Source: Limnothrix sp. BL-A-16 (GTDB lineage Bacteria; Cyanobacteriota; Cyanobacteriia; CACIAM-69d). From it: a DNA stretch of 64,000 nucleotides. The stretch spans positions 1 to 64,000 of the forward strand of contig CP166615.1 in NCBI GenBank assembly GCA_041937175.2, written 5' to 3'. Shown in pieces: positions 14,055-22,072 of the stretch; position 1 is the stretch's first letter; every line of letters begins with the position of its first letter. Both the position numbers and the translations under genes were made by a program. A model generated the notes under the pieces. It worked only from the letters and a program-made list of their open reading frames with translations, was not told where the DNA came from and ran no database searches.

Positions 14055-15731
14055 ATGGGTCGATCGCGCCATTTGTTTTCCCTCCGATTCGATCGCCTCG
14101 GCCAAGCCCTGATTCGGACTGGGCGCTTGGTGTTGTTAGGGGCGATCGGCTGCTCGATCGCCACGACCGCCAGCGCCACTCTGCCCGCCGTGCTGTTGCC
14201 GCTGTCCACAGGGCCCGATGGCATCGATTCCGATCGACTGCATCAAGCGCCCTACAACATCACCGGCCGCAAAATTGGCATTGGCCAAGTGGAAATTGGC
14301 CGGCCCGGTCGTTTTGGCTATGACAAGCAGGCGGGGAACGCGGACGATTTTCGGCCCGCTGGCCTGTTGGTGATCGAAGAGCGACCAGGCCCCGATGAAT
14401 ATGTGGATGGCCATGCCCACAGCGTGGCGGGGGTGATGATTGGGCGATCGGGAAAATTGGCTCGGGGCGTGGCTCCTGGGGCCATGCTCTATTCCGCAGC
14501 CACGGGCCCATCCGAAGGCAATGGCCAAATTGGAGAATGTTTAGCCAGCCAGTCCGTGGCCCTGCAAAACCATGGCGATGTGCGGGCCATTAACTTCAGT
14601 TTTGGCGAACCCCTCAGCCAGGATCAGCGACTGAACGCCATGTTGGATGGCAATTCCCTGCTCACCCTTTGCGTGGATTGGTCGGCGCGGGCCCATGAGG
14701 TGCTGTACCTAATTGCGGGCAACCAGGGCGACGGGGGCATTTCCATTCCCACGGACACCTTTAACGGCATCAATGTGGCCTTTACCCGGCGGTTCCGGGG
14801 GCAGTTTTCTAAGTTGGATTTTGCCAACCTGGGGAATGTGGTGACCGGGGTGGGTCGGCATTTGGTGGGCTTTGAAAGCAATGCGGGGTTGCGGCGGTCG
14901 ATCGGGCTGGTGGCTCCGGGGGCCGATGTGGGGCTGTATGAACTGGGCGGCCAGGTGATTTATGCCAGTGGCACGAGCTTCGCCACCCCCCATGTCACGG
15001 CCACGGTGGCCCTGCTTCAGGAATGGGCTGAACGGCAAATTTCTGGAAACCAAGCCCGCTGGAGCAAAGATGCCCGTCGCCACCAGGTCATGAAAGCCGT
15101 GTTGATGAATTCCGCAGACAAGGCCAAAGATGCAGGAGACGGCAACCGGCTGGGGATGACCCGGGATGTGTGGCGCGAAGACGAAAAAACCTGGCTGGAT
15201 TCTGATGCCTTGAGCGATCCGACAATTCCGCTCGATGAACAAATTGGTGCGGGGCAACTGAACGCCTACCGGGCCTATCAACAGTTTGCGCCGGGTCAAT
15301 GGCAGCCGGGCGAGGCTGTGCCCTTGCTGGGCTGGGCGTTCCAGTCCTTAGCCTTGAAGGATGACCAACCCGCCGTTCACGACTACCCGATCGCCCAACC
15401 GCTCCAGGGCGGCAGCTTTGCGGCCCTGACCCTGACTTGGAGCCGCCATGTGGAATTGCTCGATCGCAATAACAATGGCCGGTTCGATCGGGGCGAAGGT
15501 TTTGTGAATAAAGGTCTGAGCGATTTTGATCTGTACCTGATTCCGGAAGGGGAAACCGTGGCCACCACCACTAATCCCTGTCGATCGATCAGTTCTGCGG
15601 ACAGCGTGGAGCATGTGTTCTGCGAAGTGCCCAAAACCGGTCGCTATCGGGTGCGGGTGGCCCTGAAGGAAGCGGCCGTGGGCCAAAGCGATGAGTATGC
15701 CCTCGCTTGGTGGACGAAGGGAGCTAAATAG
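14055..15731 (+). CDS. S8 (subtilisin-like) serine peptidase, secreted
   Basis: HAHSVAGVM, AGN and SGTSFATPHV motifs. Hydrophobic N-terminal signal. Confidence 0.88.
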   Translation: MGRSRHLFSLRFDRLGQALIRTGRLVLLGAIGCSIATTASATLPAVLLPLSTGPDGIDSDRLHQAPYNITGRKIGIGQVEIGRPGRFGYDKQAGNADDFRPAGLLVIEERPGPDEYVDGHAHSVAGVMIGRSGKLARGVAPGAMLYSAATGPSEGNGQIGECLASQSVALQNHGDVRAINFSFGEPLSQDQRLNAMLDGNSLLTLCVDWSARAHEVLYLIAGNQGDGGISIPTDTFNGINVAFTRRFRGQFSKLDFANLGNVVTGVGRHLVGFESNAGLRRSIGLVAPGADVGLYELGGQVIYASGTSFATPHVTATVALLQEWAERQISGNQARWSKDARRHQVMKAVLMNSADKAKDAGDGNRLGMTRDVWREDEKTWLDSDALSDPTIPLDEQIGAGQLNAYRAYQQFAPGQWQPGEAVPLLGWAFQSLALKDDQPAVHDYPIAQPLQGGSFAALTLTWSRHVELLDRNNNGRFDRGEGFVNKGLSDFDLYLIPEGETVATTTNPCRSISSADSVEHVFCEVPKTGRYRVRVALKEAAVGQSDEYALAWWTKGAK

Positions 15732-15846
15732 CGCGATCGCCCCCATCCTCAATTCAGCAGCATCCCGGTCTGATCTGGTCACGCCCGCTGCTGAATTGCT
15801 CAACTACCCAATTCGCTGCTTCAGTTCACGAATTGCTACCCTGCGC

Positions 15847-16809
15847 ATGAACGATCGCCCTTTTTTATCAATCGTTACGGCTACGACGGGTAAATTTAGT
15901 CAGGCTTGGCTGACTCGCCTCCTGACTGTGCAGGGGCCGGTCGAATTTGTGATGGTTTATCCACCAGGGGTACAGCCCCGTGCAACCGATGACCGGCGCG
16001 TGCGCGCCTTAATCAGTCCATTTCGAGGGGAGGTTTTACAGCGGTTCACAGGGCTTTTGAATGCAACCGGAAACTACACCATTGCGCTGGATGATGATGA
16101 TTTTATTCATCCAGATATCTGTGCTTTAGTTCAGCAATTTTCTCAACTATTTCCTGATGACTGGGTACTACGGCTATCGATTCAAAATATTCCACGCCAA
16201 CACCAGTCAGAAATCGAAGCACCTTGGCTTCCTATACCCAATCTAGAGACGATCACCCACACTTCTAACCACCAATCATCTGAACAGCACTCAACAGCTC
16301 ATTCCTTGCGACCAATCCCAATTGCCCCTCTTCAGAATCCAATTAACTGGATGTTAGCCATTTTCCCCTTCGCACAGCGTCGAGATCATTATGGACGACA
16401 TATAGAAAACTTTAACAATAGGGTTTGGAAAACAGACCTTTTAAAAGTCCCACTGAATGATTGGTCTCGTGTTATGAAAATATATGGCAACTTGTATTGG
16501 TTGCCCTCTTGGAGCCTTGATCGAGCGCTAGGGTTATTCGTACAAGCGTTTCATTTTAACCCGAATATCAGGTGGATTGGTTATAGCATTCAAGGCCCAG
16601 AGCAAGTTCGATATATCGTCGGTAATACTAATCCTGAAACTCAAGTTAAAAAGATTAACTATCGCTTTCATTTTTCTGCGGATTTATTACTGGCAAAACG
16701 ATTCCCGAAATATGGATATTTTTGGAATCTATTCTTTAATGGTTTCTACACAGCCATTAAGCAATACATCAAGTTATTGTATGCAAAGTTGCTATCACTC
16801 AGGCGCTAA
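15847..16809 (+). CDS. Glycosyltransferase family 2-like protein
   Basis: PFLSIV N-terminus and GLLNATGNYTIALDDDD (DXD) motif. Start moved to ATG 15847. Confidence 0.75.
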   Translation: MNDRPFLSIVTATTGKFSQAWLTRLLTVQGPVEFVMVYPPGVQPRATDDRRVRALISPFRGEVLQRFTGLLNATGNYTIALDDDDFIHPDICALVQQFSQLFPDDWVLRLSIQNIPRQHQSEIEAPWLPIPNLETITHTSNHQSSEQHSTAHSLRPIPIAPLQNPINWMLAIFPFAQRRDHYGRHIENFNNRVWKTDLLKVPLNDWSRVMKIYGNLYWLPSWSLDRALGLFVQAFHFNPNIRWIGYSIQGPEQVRYIVGNTNPETQVKKINYRFHFSADLLLAKRFPKYGYFWNLFFNGFYTAIKQYIKLLYAKLLSLRR

Positions 16810-17705: not shown

Positions 17706-20099
17706 ATGGCTCAACTGGACAGCAATCAGATCGCAGCTTGTCAGAACCTCCAGGAATCCGTTGAAGCCATCGTGCATCTGGTTGAGCAAGAGTCCACACT
17801 CCAAAATCAAGATATTGCGTCAGTTCATACCTCTCTGCGCAAGGCGATCGCCCCGACCTTTGAAGTGGCCTTTGTGGGGGCTTTCAGCGCTGGGAAATCA
17901 ATGCTGATTAATGCCCTGCTAGGTCGAGAATTGCTCTATAGCGCTGAAGGCCATGCCACCGGCATTGAATGTTATATCGCCTATGCACCGAGCGATCGCG
18001 AACGGGTTGTATTGACCTTTGCCAGTGCGGCTGAAGTTCACGAAGAAGTGCAGGTCTTGTTGGAGCGGCTGGGGGTTTCTTCAGCGATTGATTTGAGCCG
18101 CGAAGAGACCGTTTCAACGATTCTCACTGCCTGCGAAAAGATGATCGAAAAAGAAGGCGGTGAATCCAAATCTGAACGAGCTAAACAAGCGAAGGCTCTG
18201 AAGTTATTAATTGAAGGCTGGTGGACTAATCGCGATCGCATCCATCCCACCAGCAACACCACCTACTCAATGGAGCAATTTAACTTCACCAACCTCAAGG
18301 ATGCGGCAGCCTATGCCCGGCGCGGCAGTAACAGCGCGGTGCTCAAGCGGGTGGAATATTACTGCTGTCATCCGTTGTTGGAAGACGGCAACGTCCTGGT
18401 TGATTTGCCAGGAATTGATGCACCGATCAAAAAGGATGCCGCCCTCACCTACAGCAAAATTAGTAATGAAGACACATCGGCTGTGGTTGCGGTTTTGAAG
18501 CCAGCCGCAGCGGGTGACATGACGAAAGAGGAAACCGAACTCCTAGAAGCAATGCGTAGCAATTCGGGCATTCGCGATCGGGTCTTTTTCGTCTTCAATC
18601 GCATTGACGAAACTTGGTATAACGTTCAACTGCGTCAGCGCCTGGAATCTCTGATTTCCAGTCAGTTTCGAGATGGCCAGCGGCTCTATAAAACCAGTGG
18701 GCTGCTGGGGTTCTATGGCAGCCAGCTCCGGGAAACCAGTGCGGGCGATCGGTTCGGTCTCGATAGCATTTTTGCTAGCAGCATCAAAAGCTCAGAAATT
18801 GCCGAAGAAACGCCACAGTTCGTCTATGAATTCAATCGCTATTGCTCCAGTTCTGGCAAATTACCGGCCAATCGTTTTCGGATTTCGGTCAACAACTACG
18901 AAAGCCAAAACGAAAATTACGTTCGGATTCTGAGCGAATATGGTTCACCCCTGGTGGATCAACTGATTCATGACAGCGGTATTGAAGTGTTTCGAGAGGG
19001 CATCACGCGCTATTTAACGGAAGAAAAGCGCCCCCAGCTCTTCTCGACTTTGGCGAATGATTTACAGCCCCTTTGCGTGTCCCTGCGTCGGTTGTATAGC
19101 GATCGCTACCGAGAACTCGATAGCCAACCCACAGAACTCGAAGGCATTAAAAGCAATCGGCTCGATCGGCTCAACACCGATTTGAAGCGCCTAGCCGAGA
19201 ACTTTGCGGATCATTTAAAGCGCGAAGTTAACGAGATTGTCACTAATCAATGTGTCAGCTTTGAAGACGATTTCCGCAATTTGCAAGTGCGGATGCAAGG
19301 ACGGATGGGCGAGCTGCTAAATGGATTTTCCGTTAAGCAAGCCTACCAGCGGGCCACGTTGGCTCATCCGCGCAATTCCACCGCTCCTTTGTTGGCAATT
19401 TTAGTTGAAGCATTCTATTACTTAGCCAATGAATTGGAAGAAGTGCTAACTGCGGAAATTGAGCGAGTAATTCGGCGGCTTTTTTCGTTGCTGATGGATC
19501 GAATTCGCCACCAAGATTACTATCGGGAACTATGCCGGTTGGTGGGAGATGATGCGGGATTGGAAGATCGATTGAAGGCGATCGAACAATCCGTACAGTT
19601 GGCGCTTCGCAGCGAGGCGAGCACTGAGTGCGATCGCTATGTGCGCGAAAGTCCCGATTTCTATCAGGAAGGCTCGGTTTCGCTCTATCAGTTTCGGGAA
19701 GTGTTGCGCCAAACTTCTGTGGGCTATGACTTTTTGCCGATGGTGGAAGCAGAACCCGCCATTCGCCAGTTGCTAGAACTTGACTTTGCACCCAAGGTCA
19801 AGCGCACGGTGACGAGCACTTTTCGCCAAGCGGTTAGCCAAACTCTGAAATCGCAACTGTTGCCCATCGCAGTGGAGTACGAAGAGGTGATTTTGCAGCA
19901 ATATACGATCGCCCGTAACCACTTAGAAAAAACGATCGAAAAGGAAGCCCAAGAGCAACTGGAGCAACTGGCTGAGCAAAAAGCTGTTTTGCAGGAGCAA
20001 ATCGCGACTTATAACCAGGCGGTGGAGGCGATCGATGCTTGTTTGCAATCCATGGGGTGCGATCGCTACCAACTCCCGATCGTTGAGTTGGTAGCCTAG
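17706..20099 (+). CDS. Dynamin-like GTPase (cyanobacterial KGK-clade DLP)
   Basis: G1 GAFSAGKS, G2 HATG, G3 DLPG and G4 NRID. Long helical C-terminal region. Confidence 0.92.
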   Translation: MAQLDSNQIAACQNLQESVEAIVHLVEQESTLQNQDIASVHTSLRKAIAPTFEVAFVGAFSAGKSMLINALLGRELLYSAEGHATGIECYIAYAPSDRERVVLTFASAAEVHEEVQVLLERLGVSSAIDLSREETVSTILTACEKMIEKEGGESKSERAKQAKALKLLIEGWWTNRDRIHPTSNTTYSMEQFNFTNLKDAAAYARRGSNSAVLKRVEYYCCHPLLEDGNVLVDLPGIDAPIKKDAALTYSKISNEDTSAVVAVLKPAAAGDMTKEETELLEAMRSNSGIRDRVFFVFNRIDETWYNVQLRQRLESLISSQFRDGQRLYKTSGLLGFYGSQLRETSAGDRFGLDSIFASSIKSSEIAEETPQFVYEFNRYCSSSGKLPANRFRISVNNYESQNENYVRILSEYGSPLVDQLIHDSGIEVFREGITRYLTEEKRPQLFSTLANDLQPLCVSLRRLYSDRYRELDSQPTELEGIKSNRLDRLNTDLKRLAENFADHLKREVNEIVTNQCVSFEDDFRNLQVRMQGRMGELLNGFSVKQAYQRATLAHPRNSTAPLLAILVEAFYYLANELEEVLTAEIERVIRRLFSLLMDRIRHQDYYRELCRLVGDDAGLEDRLKAIEQSVQLALRSEASTECDRYVRESPDFYQEGSVSLYQFREVLRQTSVGYDFLPMVEAEPAIRQLLELDFAPKVKRTVTSTFRQAVSQTLKSQLLPIAVEYEEVILQQYTIARNHLEKTIEKEAQEQLEQLAEQKAVLQEQIATYNQAVEAIDACLQSMGCDRYQLPIVELVA

Positions 20100-20175
20100 C
20101 CCCAATCGTGTTGGCAGCAAGGGGCTTGAGCATCTTGTCTAGTGACAGAAACCAAGATTTTTGAGGCGTTTTTGA

Positions 20176-20502
20176 ATGACTGAGCCAATTGTTTATCGCC
20201 TTGACGCAGAAGATGTCATTCGATCGGATAATGACGATTTGCCGTTTGTGGAAGTGCCGATTTGCTTGGTTAATCACATGATTGCCAGCCTAGGAGAAGC
20301 TCATGATGAAGATCTTGAAAAAGCGGCTTTTGCCCATGGCTTTCCTTGTCGAGTGCTACGCCCAGGCCAAAAGCAGTGGCTTTCTGGCAAGGTGCGTTTC
20401 TTCCTAGAAGTCGAGCTTGACCCAGATCAAGAAACAGAATCAATCAATTCTGAATCTTCTGATTCACCGCTGGACGAGCTACGAAAACTAGCTGGTGAAT
20501 AG
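20176..20502 (+). CDS. KGK-domain-like protein 1
   Basis: GFPCRVLRPGQKQWLSGKVR; tail DSPLDELRKL. Confidence 0.85.
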   Translation: MTEPIVYRLDAEDVIRSDNDDLPFVEVPICLVNHMIASLGEAHDEDLEKAAFAHGFPCRVLRPGQKQWLSGKVRFFLEVELDPDQETESINSESSDSPLDELRKLAGE

Positions 20503-20541
20503 AGTAAAAGTAGAACTGTAATCTTCAAGAGGGTATCGATC

Positions 20542-20865
20542 ATGAATCTTTCCAAAATGCAAGAACTTTTACTCAACGAAGTGGTCACGACGGGGTTTGG
20601 TTGCCACATCAATAATCGTCCCACTAGCCAGATTTCAGAAATTCGACAAACTATCAGTGATCGTTTTGGCGGAGATCTTAAAATTTTGCTCTCAGAAGAA
20701 GGGTTGCTGTGTCAAGTTTTAAGACTAGGCTCGCCAAAATGGAAATCTGGGCGACTGCGCTTGATGCTGCTTTTTGAGCCAGATGAACCTGTAAAGGAAA
20801 ACTCGTCAGAAAAAGATGAGTTGGATGAGTCTCTCAGCGAACTTCAACGTCTAGCCGATAGCTAA
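20542..20865 (+). CDS. KGK-domain-like protein 2
   Basis: EGLLCQVLRLGSPKWKSGRLR...FEPDEP; tail ESLSELQRL. Confidence 0.85.
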   Translation: MNLSKMQELLLNEVVTTGFGCHINNRPTSQISEIRQTISDRFGGDLKILLSEEGLLCQVLRLGSPKWKSGRLRLMLLFEPDEPVKENSSEKDELDESLSELQRLADS

Positions 20866-20901
20866 TTCCACAAGAAGATCTGAAAAACAAAAAATTTGGT
20901 T

Positions 20902-21294
20902 ATGGAAGAAGAATTCTTACCCTTAGATCCTGACGAAGTTATCTCAACAGAGCCTGACTATACGATTGCTGTAAAGCATCAGACTTGCACAACGCGAGAG
21001 TTTCTAAGTGCTATTGCTTCAGCACTGCAACACTATTCAAGTTACGGAGGTAGTCTAATCACCTGGAATGCGAAGCGGCGTTTATGGTTTATGGATGAAG
21101 GAATTGAGGGGCGCGCCTTGCGATTCAGTGAAAAAGGGTGGCAGTCGGGGCGGTTGAGGTTGTCGATCGAGTTTTGTCCCGATGAGCCAGAACCAGAGCT
21201 AGAACCAGAAACGCCAGAATTGCCCTTGTTGGAAGCTAGTATCGAACCGGCTGATTCTCCGTTAGATGAAATTCGGCGCTTGGCCGAGGAATAG
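20902..21294 (+). CDS. KGK-domain-like protein 3
   Basis: EGIEGRALRFSEKGWQSGRLRLSIEFCPDEPE; tail DSPLDEIRRL. Confidence 0.88.
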   Translation: MEEEFLPLDPDEVISTEPDYTIAVKHQTCTTREFLSAIASALQHYSSYGGSLITWNAKRRLWFMDEGIEGRALRFSEKGWQSGRLRLSIEFCPDEPEPELEPETPELPLLEASIEPADSPLDEIRRLAEE

Positions 21295-21325
21295 CAATGG
21301 CCAAAACACCTCGCACTAAAATTGA
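21165..21325 (+). repeat. Direct repeat, copy 1 (copy 2 at 21703-21864): KGK 3' end plus HNH 5' end
   Basis: About 160 bp near-identical at an offset of ~538 bp. Confidence 0.92.
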
Positions 21326-21332
21326 CTCGTAA
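21297..21332 (+). pseudogene. Remnant 5' end of the HNH gene (MAKTPRTKIDS*)
   Basis: Matches the first 10 codons of 21836..22072 (MAKTPRIKID). Confidence 0.85.
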
Positions 21333-21445
21333 TGTGACAGTTACGAATTTGATTAATCTGTAAGTTGAGTTTTGGTGCGAAAGCTAGCGCTAGAAAGATT
21401 TACAAGAATCTAATTCTCTTGGTATTAAATTTGGAGGCATTTAGA

Positions 21446-21832
21446 GTGGAAAATCATCAATTAATGAAGCTAGGTGAGGTGATTTCCATCTCTACTGCTC
21501 AACACATCAATATAACCAATGAAACCTGCACAGTTGAAGAGTTCATGAGAGGACTCTCTAGTGTAGTTGAGAGTTATGTAAAGGGTTATGGCAACTATCG
21601 TTGGACTGAAAGGCGGGGTCAGTGGTTCACTGAAGAAGGTGTTGAAGGACAGGTGTTGAGGTTTGGGCAAAATGAGTGGGAGTCGGGAACTTTGCGACTG
21701 AGGATCGAGTTTTGTCCCGATGAACCAGAACCAGAGCTAGAAGCAGAAACGCCAGAATTGCCCTTATTGGAAGCCAGCATTGAACCGGCTGATTCTCCGT
21801 TAGATGAAATTCGGCGCTTGGCAGAGGAATAG
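21446..21832 (+). CDS. KGK-domain-like protein 4
   Basis: GGAGG RBS plus GTG 21446. EGVEGQVLRFGQNEWESGTLRLRIEFCPDEPE; tail nearly identical to protein 3. Confidence 0.88.
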   Translation: MENHQLMKLGEVISISTAQHINITNETCTVEEFMRGLSSVVESYVKGYGNYRWTERRGQWFTEEGVEGQVLRFGQNEWESGTLRLRIEFCPDEPEPELEAETPELPLLEASIEPADSPLDEIRRLAEE

Positions 21833-21835
21833 CAA

Positions 21836-22072
21836 ATGGCCAAAACTCCCCGCATCAAAATTGATCCAGCCGTTCGACAATATGTGCTCGATCGCGACAA
21901 TCACCAATGTCAAAGTTGTGGCAGCCGCGATCGCCTAGAAATTGACCACATCAAATCCCTTGCGGCTGGCGGATCAAACGACATTAGCAATTTGCAAACC
22001 CTTTGTCGCAGTTGCAATGCTCGCAAGCGCGATCGCCTCGATTCGCGGTTCGATCGCCGGTTTAACCTGTGA
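21836..22072 (+). CDS. Small HNH endonuclease
   Basis: RD...CQSCG...LEIDHI...GGSN...NLQTLCRSCNARK. Confidence 0.93.
   Translation: MAKTPRIKIDPAVRQYVLDRDNHQCQSCGSRDRLEIDHIKSLAAGGSNDISNLQTLCRSCNARKRDRLDSRFDRRFNL

Follow-up and report, generated by a model that had tools for sequence, protein, structure and literature searches.

An exchangeable KGK gene cassette between a SynDLP-type dynamin gene and a small HNH gene in Limnothrix

Among bacterial dynamin-like proteins (DLPs), a cyanobacterial 'KGK clade' has been described in which a gene for a KGK protein of enigmatic function lies downstream of the dynamin gene, and a supplementary table of that 2018 study lists an HNH gene downstream in three rows and a restriction endonuclease in one (PMC5827413). 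The Synechocystis protein SynDLP (Slr0869; PDB 7zw6) is expressed, is non-essential under standard growth and is probably restrained by accessory proteins, and for this protein GTP hydrolysis, oligomerization and liposome fusion in vitro have been demonstrated (PMC10104851). According to its authors, no bacterial protein known so far is more closely related to dynamin, Drp and Mx proteins; it binds anionic thylakoid lipids, and a role in membrane repair has been proposed (PMC10104851, PMC9950537). Here, we analyse a related locus in the first 64,000 nucleotides of contig CP166615.1 of Limnothrix sp. BL-A-16 (hereafter, the window), where six open reading frames, all on the same strand at 17706–22072, encode one DLP, four KGK proteins and one HNH protein. 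A preliminary description of this DNA had pointed out the co-oriented set as a candidate defence system, and the set itself is borne out by the reading frames and by Pfam:

17706..20099, plus strand: SynDLP (Slr0869)-type dynamin-like GTPase, 797 amino acids (phmmer to PDB 7zw6; Pfam Dynamin_N, E 5e-18)
20176..20502, plus strand: KGK1, 108 amino acids, subfamily A, first slot (PF08872, 46.9 bits; tree)
20542..20865, plus strand: KGK2, 107 amino acids, subfamily B, mosaic (PF08872, 40.3 bits)
20902..21294, plus strand: KGK3, 130 amino acids, subfamily C (PF08872, 55.5 bits; tree)
21297..21332, plus strand: 11-codon stub of an HNH gene start (MAKTPRTKIDS-stop), a scar left by stacking (repeat D5, 87% identical to 21835–21864; alignment; translation)
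21446..21832 (GTG start, 128 amino acids) or 21464..21832 (ATG start, 122 amino acids), plus strand: KGK4, a second subfamily C allele stacked beside KGK3 (PF08872, 52.4 bits)
21836..22072, plus strand: minimal HNH (His-Me finger) nuclease-like protein, 78 amino acids, pI 9.7 (PF01844, 57 bits, E 2e-15)

All four KGK genes score above the PF08872 cut-off of 25.6 bits (40.3–55.5) and are the sole KGK matches in the 4.56-Mb genome, both with Pfam and with a broader custom profile; the start of KGK4 is probably the GTG at 21446, which is preceded by GGAGG.

The window locus is a member of the published KGK-clade/SynDLP operon and not a new gene set; the preliminary description had mentioned a cyanobacterial DLP clade beside KGK genes. 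The likeness extends over the full length of the dynamin, a SynDLP ortholog by phmmer against PDB 7zw6 (E 9e-294, 979 bits, residues 10–793), and includes the P-loop (GAFSAGKS, with lysine K64), the downstream KGK genes and both disulfide cysteines of the bundle signalling element, C12 and C779, which align with C8 and C777 of SynDLP and are nearly invariant in the alignment. The extended P-loop GxxxxGKS/TxL/INALL/I (PMC5827413) is present as GAFSAGKSMLINALL, and columns G58–L72 are invariant in 37 of 37 aligned dynamins. Compared with two same-genus relatives, the window dynamin has a ratio of nonsynonymous to synonymous substitution rates (dN/dS) of 0.03. While the pairing of dynamin and KGK is thus already known, the cassette behaviour of the KGK genes and their tight coupling with HNH are under-described: KGK copy number, allelic exchange, stacking and genome-wide dynamin–HNH coupling are not treated in the searched parts of PMC5827413 and PMC10104851 with their supplements, the available main text and supplements of the latter contain no mention of HNH, and the openly accessible literature on KGK and dynamin, slr0869–0871 and SynDLP with cyanophage yielded nothing on KGK function or allelic exchange.

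Two other kinds of bacterial dynamin have been connected with phage. DynA of B. subtilis is a core dynamin that limits phage spread (PMC8844932), and B. subtilis DynA and a Leo-type dynamin pair have been reported to protect against phage (bioRxiv 2022.05.11.491447). DynA, a membrane-fusing dynamin encoded on the chromosome outside islands, is a model for a protective core gene; it differs from the window dynamin in being two-headed, and the window dynamin matches its family weakly (NF052648, 36.7 bits against a cut-off of 1600). We know of no KGK array or HNH partner of DynA. With the Leo-type system (Millman et al.), for which an anti-phage role has been demonstrated, the window locus shares a dynamin GTPase; however, Leo-type loci have two consecutive dynamins and 60% of them lie beside known defence systems (bioRxiv 2022.05.11.491447), whereas the window locus has one dynamin, which scores 24.3 bits with NF041922 (cut-off 325) and is matched by the Leo-type models of PADLOC at residues 4–148 only and by LeoA at residues 4–73 only. 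In five Nostoc-type loci, SynDLP is preceded at a distance of a few kb by a second, LeoA-like dynamin gene (L047:602-2167, L056, L060, L080 and L088; L numbers denote compared loci), all of which lack downstream KGK and HNH genes.

We find that the KGK genes between the conserved dynamin and HNH genes behave as an allelic cassette that undergoes recombination. Homology for the replacement and stacking of KGK alleles is provided by the 3′ end of the dynamin gene, by the conserved core and tail of the KGK genes and by the start of the HNH gene. In the window, a 3′ segment of ~170 bp is nearly the same in KGK3 and KGK4; it begins where the core ends, includes the stop codon and continues into the HNH start, and an 11-codon HNH stub has been left behind KGK3. 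The preliminary description overlooked this segment. The core and terminal helix that it saw as common to the window KGKs are evident in our alignments. Because the tails of KGK3 and KGK4 are 98% identical in amino acid sequence with a proportion of synonymous differences (pS) of 0.22, but their N-terminal halves are only 32% identical with a pS of 0.83, the two are alleles of one slot that have become stacked, and the shared segment indicates that the likeness of the tails is in part the product of recent recombination and not of selection alone. We infer that a foreign allele was added, one of its ends being joined through homology and the other illegitimately; the alternative is duplication followed by replacement.

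Comparison with other loci shows the same exchange from several sides. Between the window and L023, the DLP genes differ with a pS of 0.28 (dN/dS 0.03) and the KGK1 genes with a pS of 0.69, while KGK2 is a mosaic of an L023-like body (N-terminal half, pS 0.19) and a tail that is distant from that of L023 (pS 0.68) and 77% identical in amino acid sequence to that of the third KGK of L022. The third KGK of L023 is itself split by an insertion sequence (L023:9240-9515, L143:1-455), at which the assembly breaks and which we take to be the start of an IS630-type transposase gene. Four further loci (L162, L163, L164 and L206) carry different KGK arrays on dynamins that are 96–99% identical. L162 and L164 have DLPs with 99% amino acid identity (pS 0.07) and HNH proteins with 95% (pS 0.08), and in 200-bp windows their flanks are 94–100% identical at the nucleotide level, the edges of the block 72% and 81%, and the five inner KGK windows 42–62%. 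L163 and L164 are close in their first two KGKs, and in the third the N-terminal half has 55% amino acid identity and a pS of 0.92, the core a pS of 0.44, and the tail neither synonymous nor nonsynonymous differences (pS and pN, the nonsynonymous proportion, both 0). L206 combines a first KGK as in L162 with a second of the L163 type. The crossovers lie near the boundary between KGK core and tail. The KGK set is accordingly not invariant, its number and identity changing between near-identical dynamin and HNH genes, and the array that the preliminary description called expanding is better described as one in turnover: copies per dynamin locus were 0 in 33, 1 in 30, 2 in nine, 3 in two and 4 in two of the 76 loci with at least 2.5 kb of downstream sequence (from the best 80 of 171, Nostocales-heavy), and up to five copies occur in other lineages.

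Within the group the order of subfamilies A, B and C is kept and duplication is variable, according to a tree in which several deep forks are weak. In approximately unbiased (AU) tests on nine trimmed rows, monophyly was rejected for the two near-clonal C alleles (p 0.044) and likewise for the four C alleles from the same genus (p 0.043), suggesting, at a borderline level, that old KGK alleles are shared across lineages. Lake metagenome contigs depart from the window sequence right after the KGK1 stop codon in three of four runs, and in one lake contig a KGK3-type core is followed without a gap by the last tail and HNH, possibly because the assembly was joined at the repeat. The depth of the lake contigs was lower over KGK2–4 than over DLP and HNH in the four runs, and X8 and X11 left parts uncovered; these values were not used, since the parts of a locus cannot be ranked by contig depth.

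The preliminary description had remarked upon the block as AT-rich and free of HIP1 (highly iterated palindrome 1) sites. The GC fraction of 20100–21835 is 0.446 compared to a median of 0.562 in 5000 random windows of 1736 bp, 3.4% of which are equally low. HIP1 sites number none in the block, six in the DLP gene and two in the HNH gene, but 15% of size-matched random windows likewise have none, so that the gap is not significant by itself and was rejected as a mark of foreign origin. Directly after the dynamin stop codon, an element of ~40 bp (20095–20142) belongs to a dispersed repeat that is matched dozens of times in the window genome and in both same-genus genomes.

The HNH gene is the second constant part of the operon. 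Its 78-amino-acid product scores well above the PF01844 cut-off (57 against 21.4 bits), and C25, C28, D37, H38, N52, C57, C60 and N61 are invariant in 37 of 37 aligned proteins, in which the basic ends are conserved too; by profile and residues it is a predicted nuclease. D37-H38, N52 and N61 are presumably catalytic and the four cysteines zinc-binding. Genomes that have an HNH of the window clade nearly always have the dynamin: among 201 genomes sampled evenly from the phylum, in which kin are not independent, the HNH clade was found in 51, the dynamin being also present in 50 of these and within 6 kb in 38. Dynamin itself occurred in 62 genomes and PF08872 in 61, 54 of the KGK genomes having a dynamin. 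At the 76 dynamin loci, both KGK and HNH were present in 32, HNH only in 12, KGK only in 11 and neither in 21 (a few HNH hits are broken genes). Where the two are separated, the insertions between KGK and HNH include HicAB, Uma2 and DUF2252, and also thioredoxin, IF3 and P-II. In 17 loci a protein of ~80–100 amino acids without a Pfam match follows HNH or the HNH position (e.g. L025:9757-10056).

The KGK proteins themselves are acidic (pI 4.4–4.9 in the window). KGK4 is modelled (predicted local distance difference test score, pLDDT, 84.7; predicted template modelling score 0.62) with a small α/β body at residues 1–80, an acidic linker of low confidence and a terminal helix. Foldseek with this model gave no match at E ≤ 0.001 in PDB or BFVD; its best structural Z score was 3.2 (MDM2/SWIB, root-mean-square deviation 3.8, 59 aligned), as was that of a model of a natural tandem-KGK protein (pLDDT 73), one of the two-KGK-domain fusions that occur naturally. 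A KGK profile found nothing among PDB sequences, and a search of the Atlas gave KGK clusters only. The ideas of a SWIB or a swapped-hairpin fold were rejected as unsupported; the modelled KGK is thus without a match among the searched solved structures, which does not establish a new fold. A KGK ortholog group has been reported in filamentous cyanobacteria (PMC3141437). Low-sensitivity, single-protein searches gave no KGK match in 50,697 phage records (KGK3 as query) or in viral contigs (one representative).

What maintains so many KGK alleles is a separate question. We propose, at roughly even confidence, that the polymorphism is kept by biological conflict and that the KGK proteins are conflict-driven adaptors with a variable body and a constant docking helix. 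The dynamin and the small HNH protein would then be fixed anchors and the KGK genes between them a polymorphic cassette array, in which each variable body would recognize a foreign or infection-linked protein (of a phage, satellite or plasmid), while the acidic linker and the amphipathic S-x-L-D-D-L/I helix would bind a constant partner. The constant output could be membrane remodelling or repair driven by the dynamin, activation of HNH, or both, and the operon would work as a core-genome protective dynamin of the DynA type with exchangeable specificity parts rather than as a mobile defence island. We count in favour of this proposal that arrays are replaced between near-identical dynamin and HNH genes, that old alleles seem to be shared across lineages, that B-type bodies (below) gather more amino acid change than the dynamin, and that the HNH clade keeps company with the dynamin. 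We also count that KGK genes are found in integrase/primase elements and on three plasmids, that SynDLP is non-essential and expected to have accessory proteins (PMC10104851), and that DynA and the Leo-type pair protect against phage (bioRxiv 2022.05.11.491447). In a bolder version, which seems to us on the improbable side, SynDLP would be the unchanging motor of an antiviral machine resembling Mx, KGK adaptors traded within populations would give that machine its specificity, and a dedicated HNH would be its killing or genome-cutting output.

Several observations weigh against the conflict proposal. One family has the dynamin in 25 of 26 genomes and a second in 9 of 10, and in another it was found in none of 82, a single-copy, near-core and vertical pattern, and its neighbours are mostly housekeeping genes; this is unlike a mobile defence island. 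Among 138 of 373 neighbour representatives submitted to PADLOC, with counts out of 100 loci and no control set, Zorya parts were found at two, a type II restriction-modification cluster at five and PIN (PDC-S70) at four loci, and Uma2-type proteins contributed 14 members in four clusters. No KGK gene is adjacent to the dynamin at 33 of 76 loci, and one KGK branch occupies a conserved housekeeping slot, ccsB-KGK-tilS. L162, L163 and L206 are metagenome contigs, in which chimeras are possible, while the stacking of KGK3 and KGK4 in the window and the comparison with L023 rest on genome assemblies; two other AU groupings were not rejected (p 0.053 and 0.285). A simple docking model is opposed by HNH without an adjacent KGK (12 of 76 loci), by KGK without HNH (11 of 76) and by the tail pattern, which is carried by 36 of 51 dynamin-adjacent KGKs and also by 12 of 24 from loci without a dynamin. 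Since KGKs that lie elsewhere in genomes carry the tail too, and since one dynamin, that of L013, itself terminates in SILDDLR, we regard the tail as a general handle of the KGK family; it may bind the dynamin, HNH, a second KGK or a protein of the host. A predicted complex of DLP, HNH and KGK4, with KGK as the partner, scored 0.00 in two runs, which counts neither for nor against binding.

The preliminary description had suggested comparing substitution patterns by region. Deep KGK alleles keep pN below pS and are therefore intact and constrained. Close B-type bodies have changed faster than the dynamin, with 11 nonsynonymous and 2 synonymous differences in one comparison and 6 and 1 in a second, against 4 and 38 and 5 and 12 in the DLP (Fisher p 7e-7 and 0.02), but pN did not significantly exceed pS in any of four tests. 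The excess of amino acid change in the B bodies fits diversifying selection or relaxed constraint, the latter because pN is not significantly higher than pS and because A-type bodies (4 nonsynonymous and 10 synonymous differences) look purifying, two points that likewise speak against conflict.

Many of these points would be at home in a housekeeping stress module, in which SynDLP repairs or remodels thylakoid or cytoplasmic membranes and the KGK proteins serve as accessory regulators under loose constraint that might, for instance, hold back oligomerization or futile GTP hydrolysis, the array turning over in a near-neutral manner as paralogous tails invite recombination. The lipid binding, liposome fusion and proposed repair function of SynDLP (PMC10104851, PMC9950537) agree with such a module, as do the near-core, single-copy dynamin, the housekeeping neighbours together with the ccsB-KGK-tilS slot, the lack of a significant excess of pN over pS, and the 33 of 76 dynamins without an adjacent KGK. 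It leaves unexplained, however, why a nuclease-like gene should be accompanied by the dynamin in 50 of 51 genomes and why deeply diverged, intact alleles (pS saturated, pN well below pS) are exchanged among near-clonal strains, and we consider it a possible but less probable account. Clearly less probable still is that the KGK proteins are inhibitors or immunity factors, the acidic KGK holding the basic HNH or the dynamin inactive or neutralizing foreign effectors, with old alleles kept in the manner of orphan immunity genes. The charges are complementary (KGK pI 4.4–4.9, HNH pI 9.7), many loci have the HNH start directly behind the last KGK, and KGK and HNH lie together on one contig apart from the dynamin in two genomes (G132 and G219). 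Stacking, moreover, resembles the sequential-displacement arrays of the Vibrio cholerae type VI secretion system, where small paralogous immunity alleles are gained and reshuffled by recombination beside conserved anchors (PMC5361080). In those arrays, however, the effector varies with the immunity gene, whereas the DLP (99% amino acid identity) and HNH (95%) stay the same where the array has been replaced between L162 and L164; the presumed cognate toxin is thus constant (HNH 95–97% identical where KGKs are replaced), 12 of 76 loci have HNH but no KGK beside it, and no secretion or delivery genes were seen among the scanned neighbours.

The least probable of the accounts, and in our opinion a very unlikely one, is a DNA-damage or replication-linked module under LexA control, with a CrfC-like use of the dynamin and a nuclease. 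It would suit the conserved HNH partner and the increase of slr0868–slr0871 by ~6- to 16-fold when Synechocystis lacks LexA (PMC4759255), a joint rise from which co-regulation follows. Yet LexA of Synechocystis is thought not to run an SOS response (PMC4759255), the window dynamin scores 28.5 bits with the CrfC model NF007368 (NCBIfam; cut-off 1146), a cyanobacterial LexA box pattern was found upstream at one of 81 loci with 0.43 expected, and such a module gives no reason for allelic cassettes. Box patterns for LexA, NtcA and CRP showed no excess over shuffled sequences upstream of the 81 dynamins, a scan for promoters and terminators gave nothing above chance, and no RNA run contained more than 0.12 of the words. 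The slr0869 gene has been suggested as a Crp target (PMC3159480) and depends on a sigma factor (PMC8875361).

The allelic cassette between two strongly conserved genes bears on SynDLP itself, whose structure and biochemistry are known: the question moves from 'membrane repair under light stress' to selection for many KGK alleles. If defence is the answer, bloom-forming cyanobacteria would have in this operon an immune system built on a core-genome dynamin, with specificity that is modular.

Away from the dynamin, KGK genes occur in integrase/primase-helicase elements, beside amidases and on plasmids. Full-tail KGK genes lie in DUF3854 primase-helicase elements (L111:5014-5487, L115:5187-5657 and L116:5035-5433), two of them divergent from the primase, and adjoin tyrosine recombinases on two Nostoc plasmids (L207 and L208). 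KGK genes beside ccsB and/or tilS were seen in L102–L107, L113, L117, L118 and L121, several being fused to an acidic low-complexity stretch of 250–500 residues, frequently with an S-L/V-L/F-x-D-V/I-W-Q-D helix at its end. Upstream of the dynamin, a palindrome-like TCAG-N7/8-ACTG element, absent in the window, was present in 26 of 80 loci (e.g. L047, L058 and L094), a count that is not independent because the pattern was derived from the same related sequences; it lies at about −75 to −100 from the match start and at a fixed distance from an AT-rich box. Upstream of the operon in the window, finally, an AT-rich glycosyltransferase-like gene (Glycos_transf_2, E 0.0013) is located at 15691–16809, and L022 has no space for this gene between the same two flanking genes.

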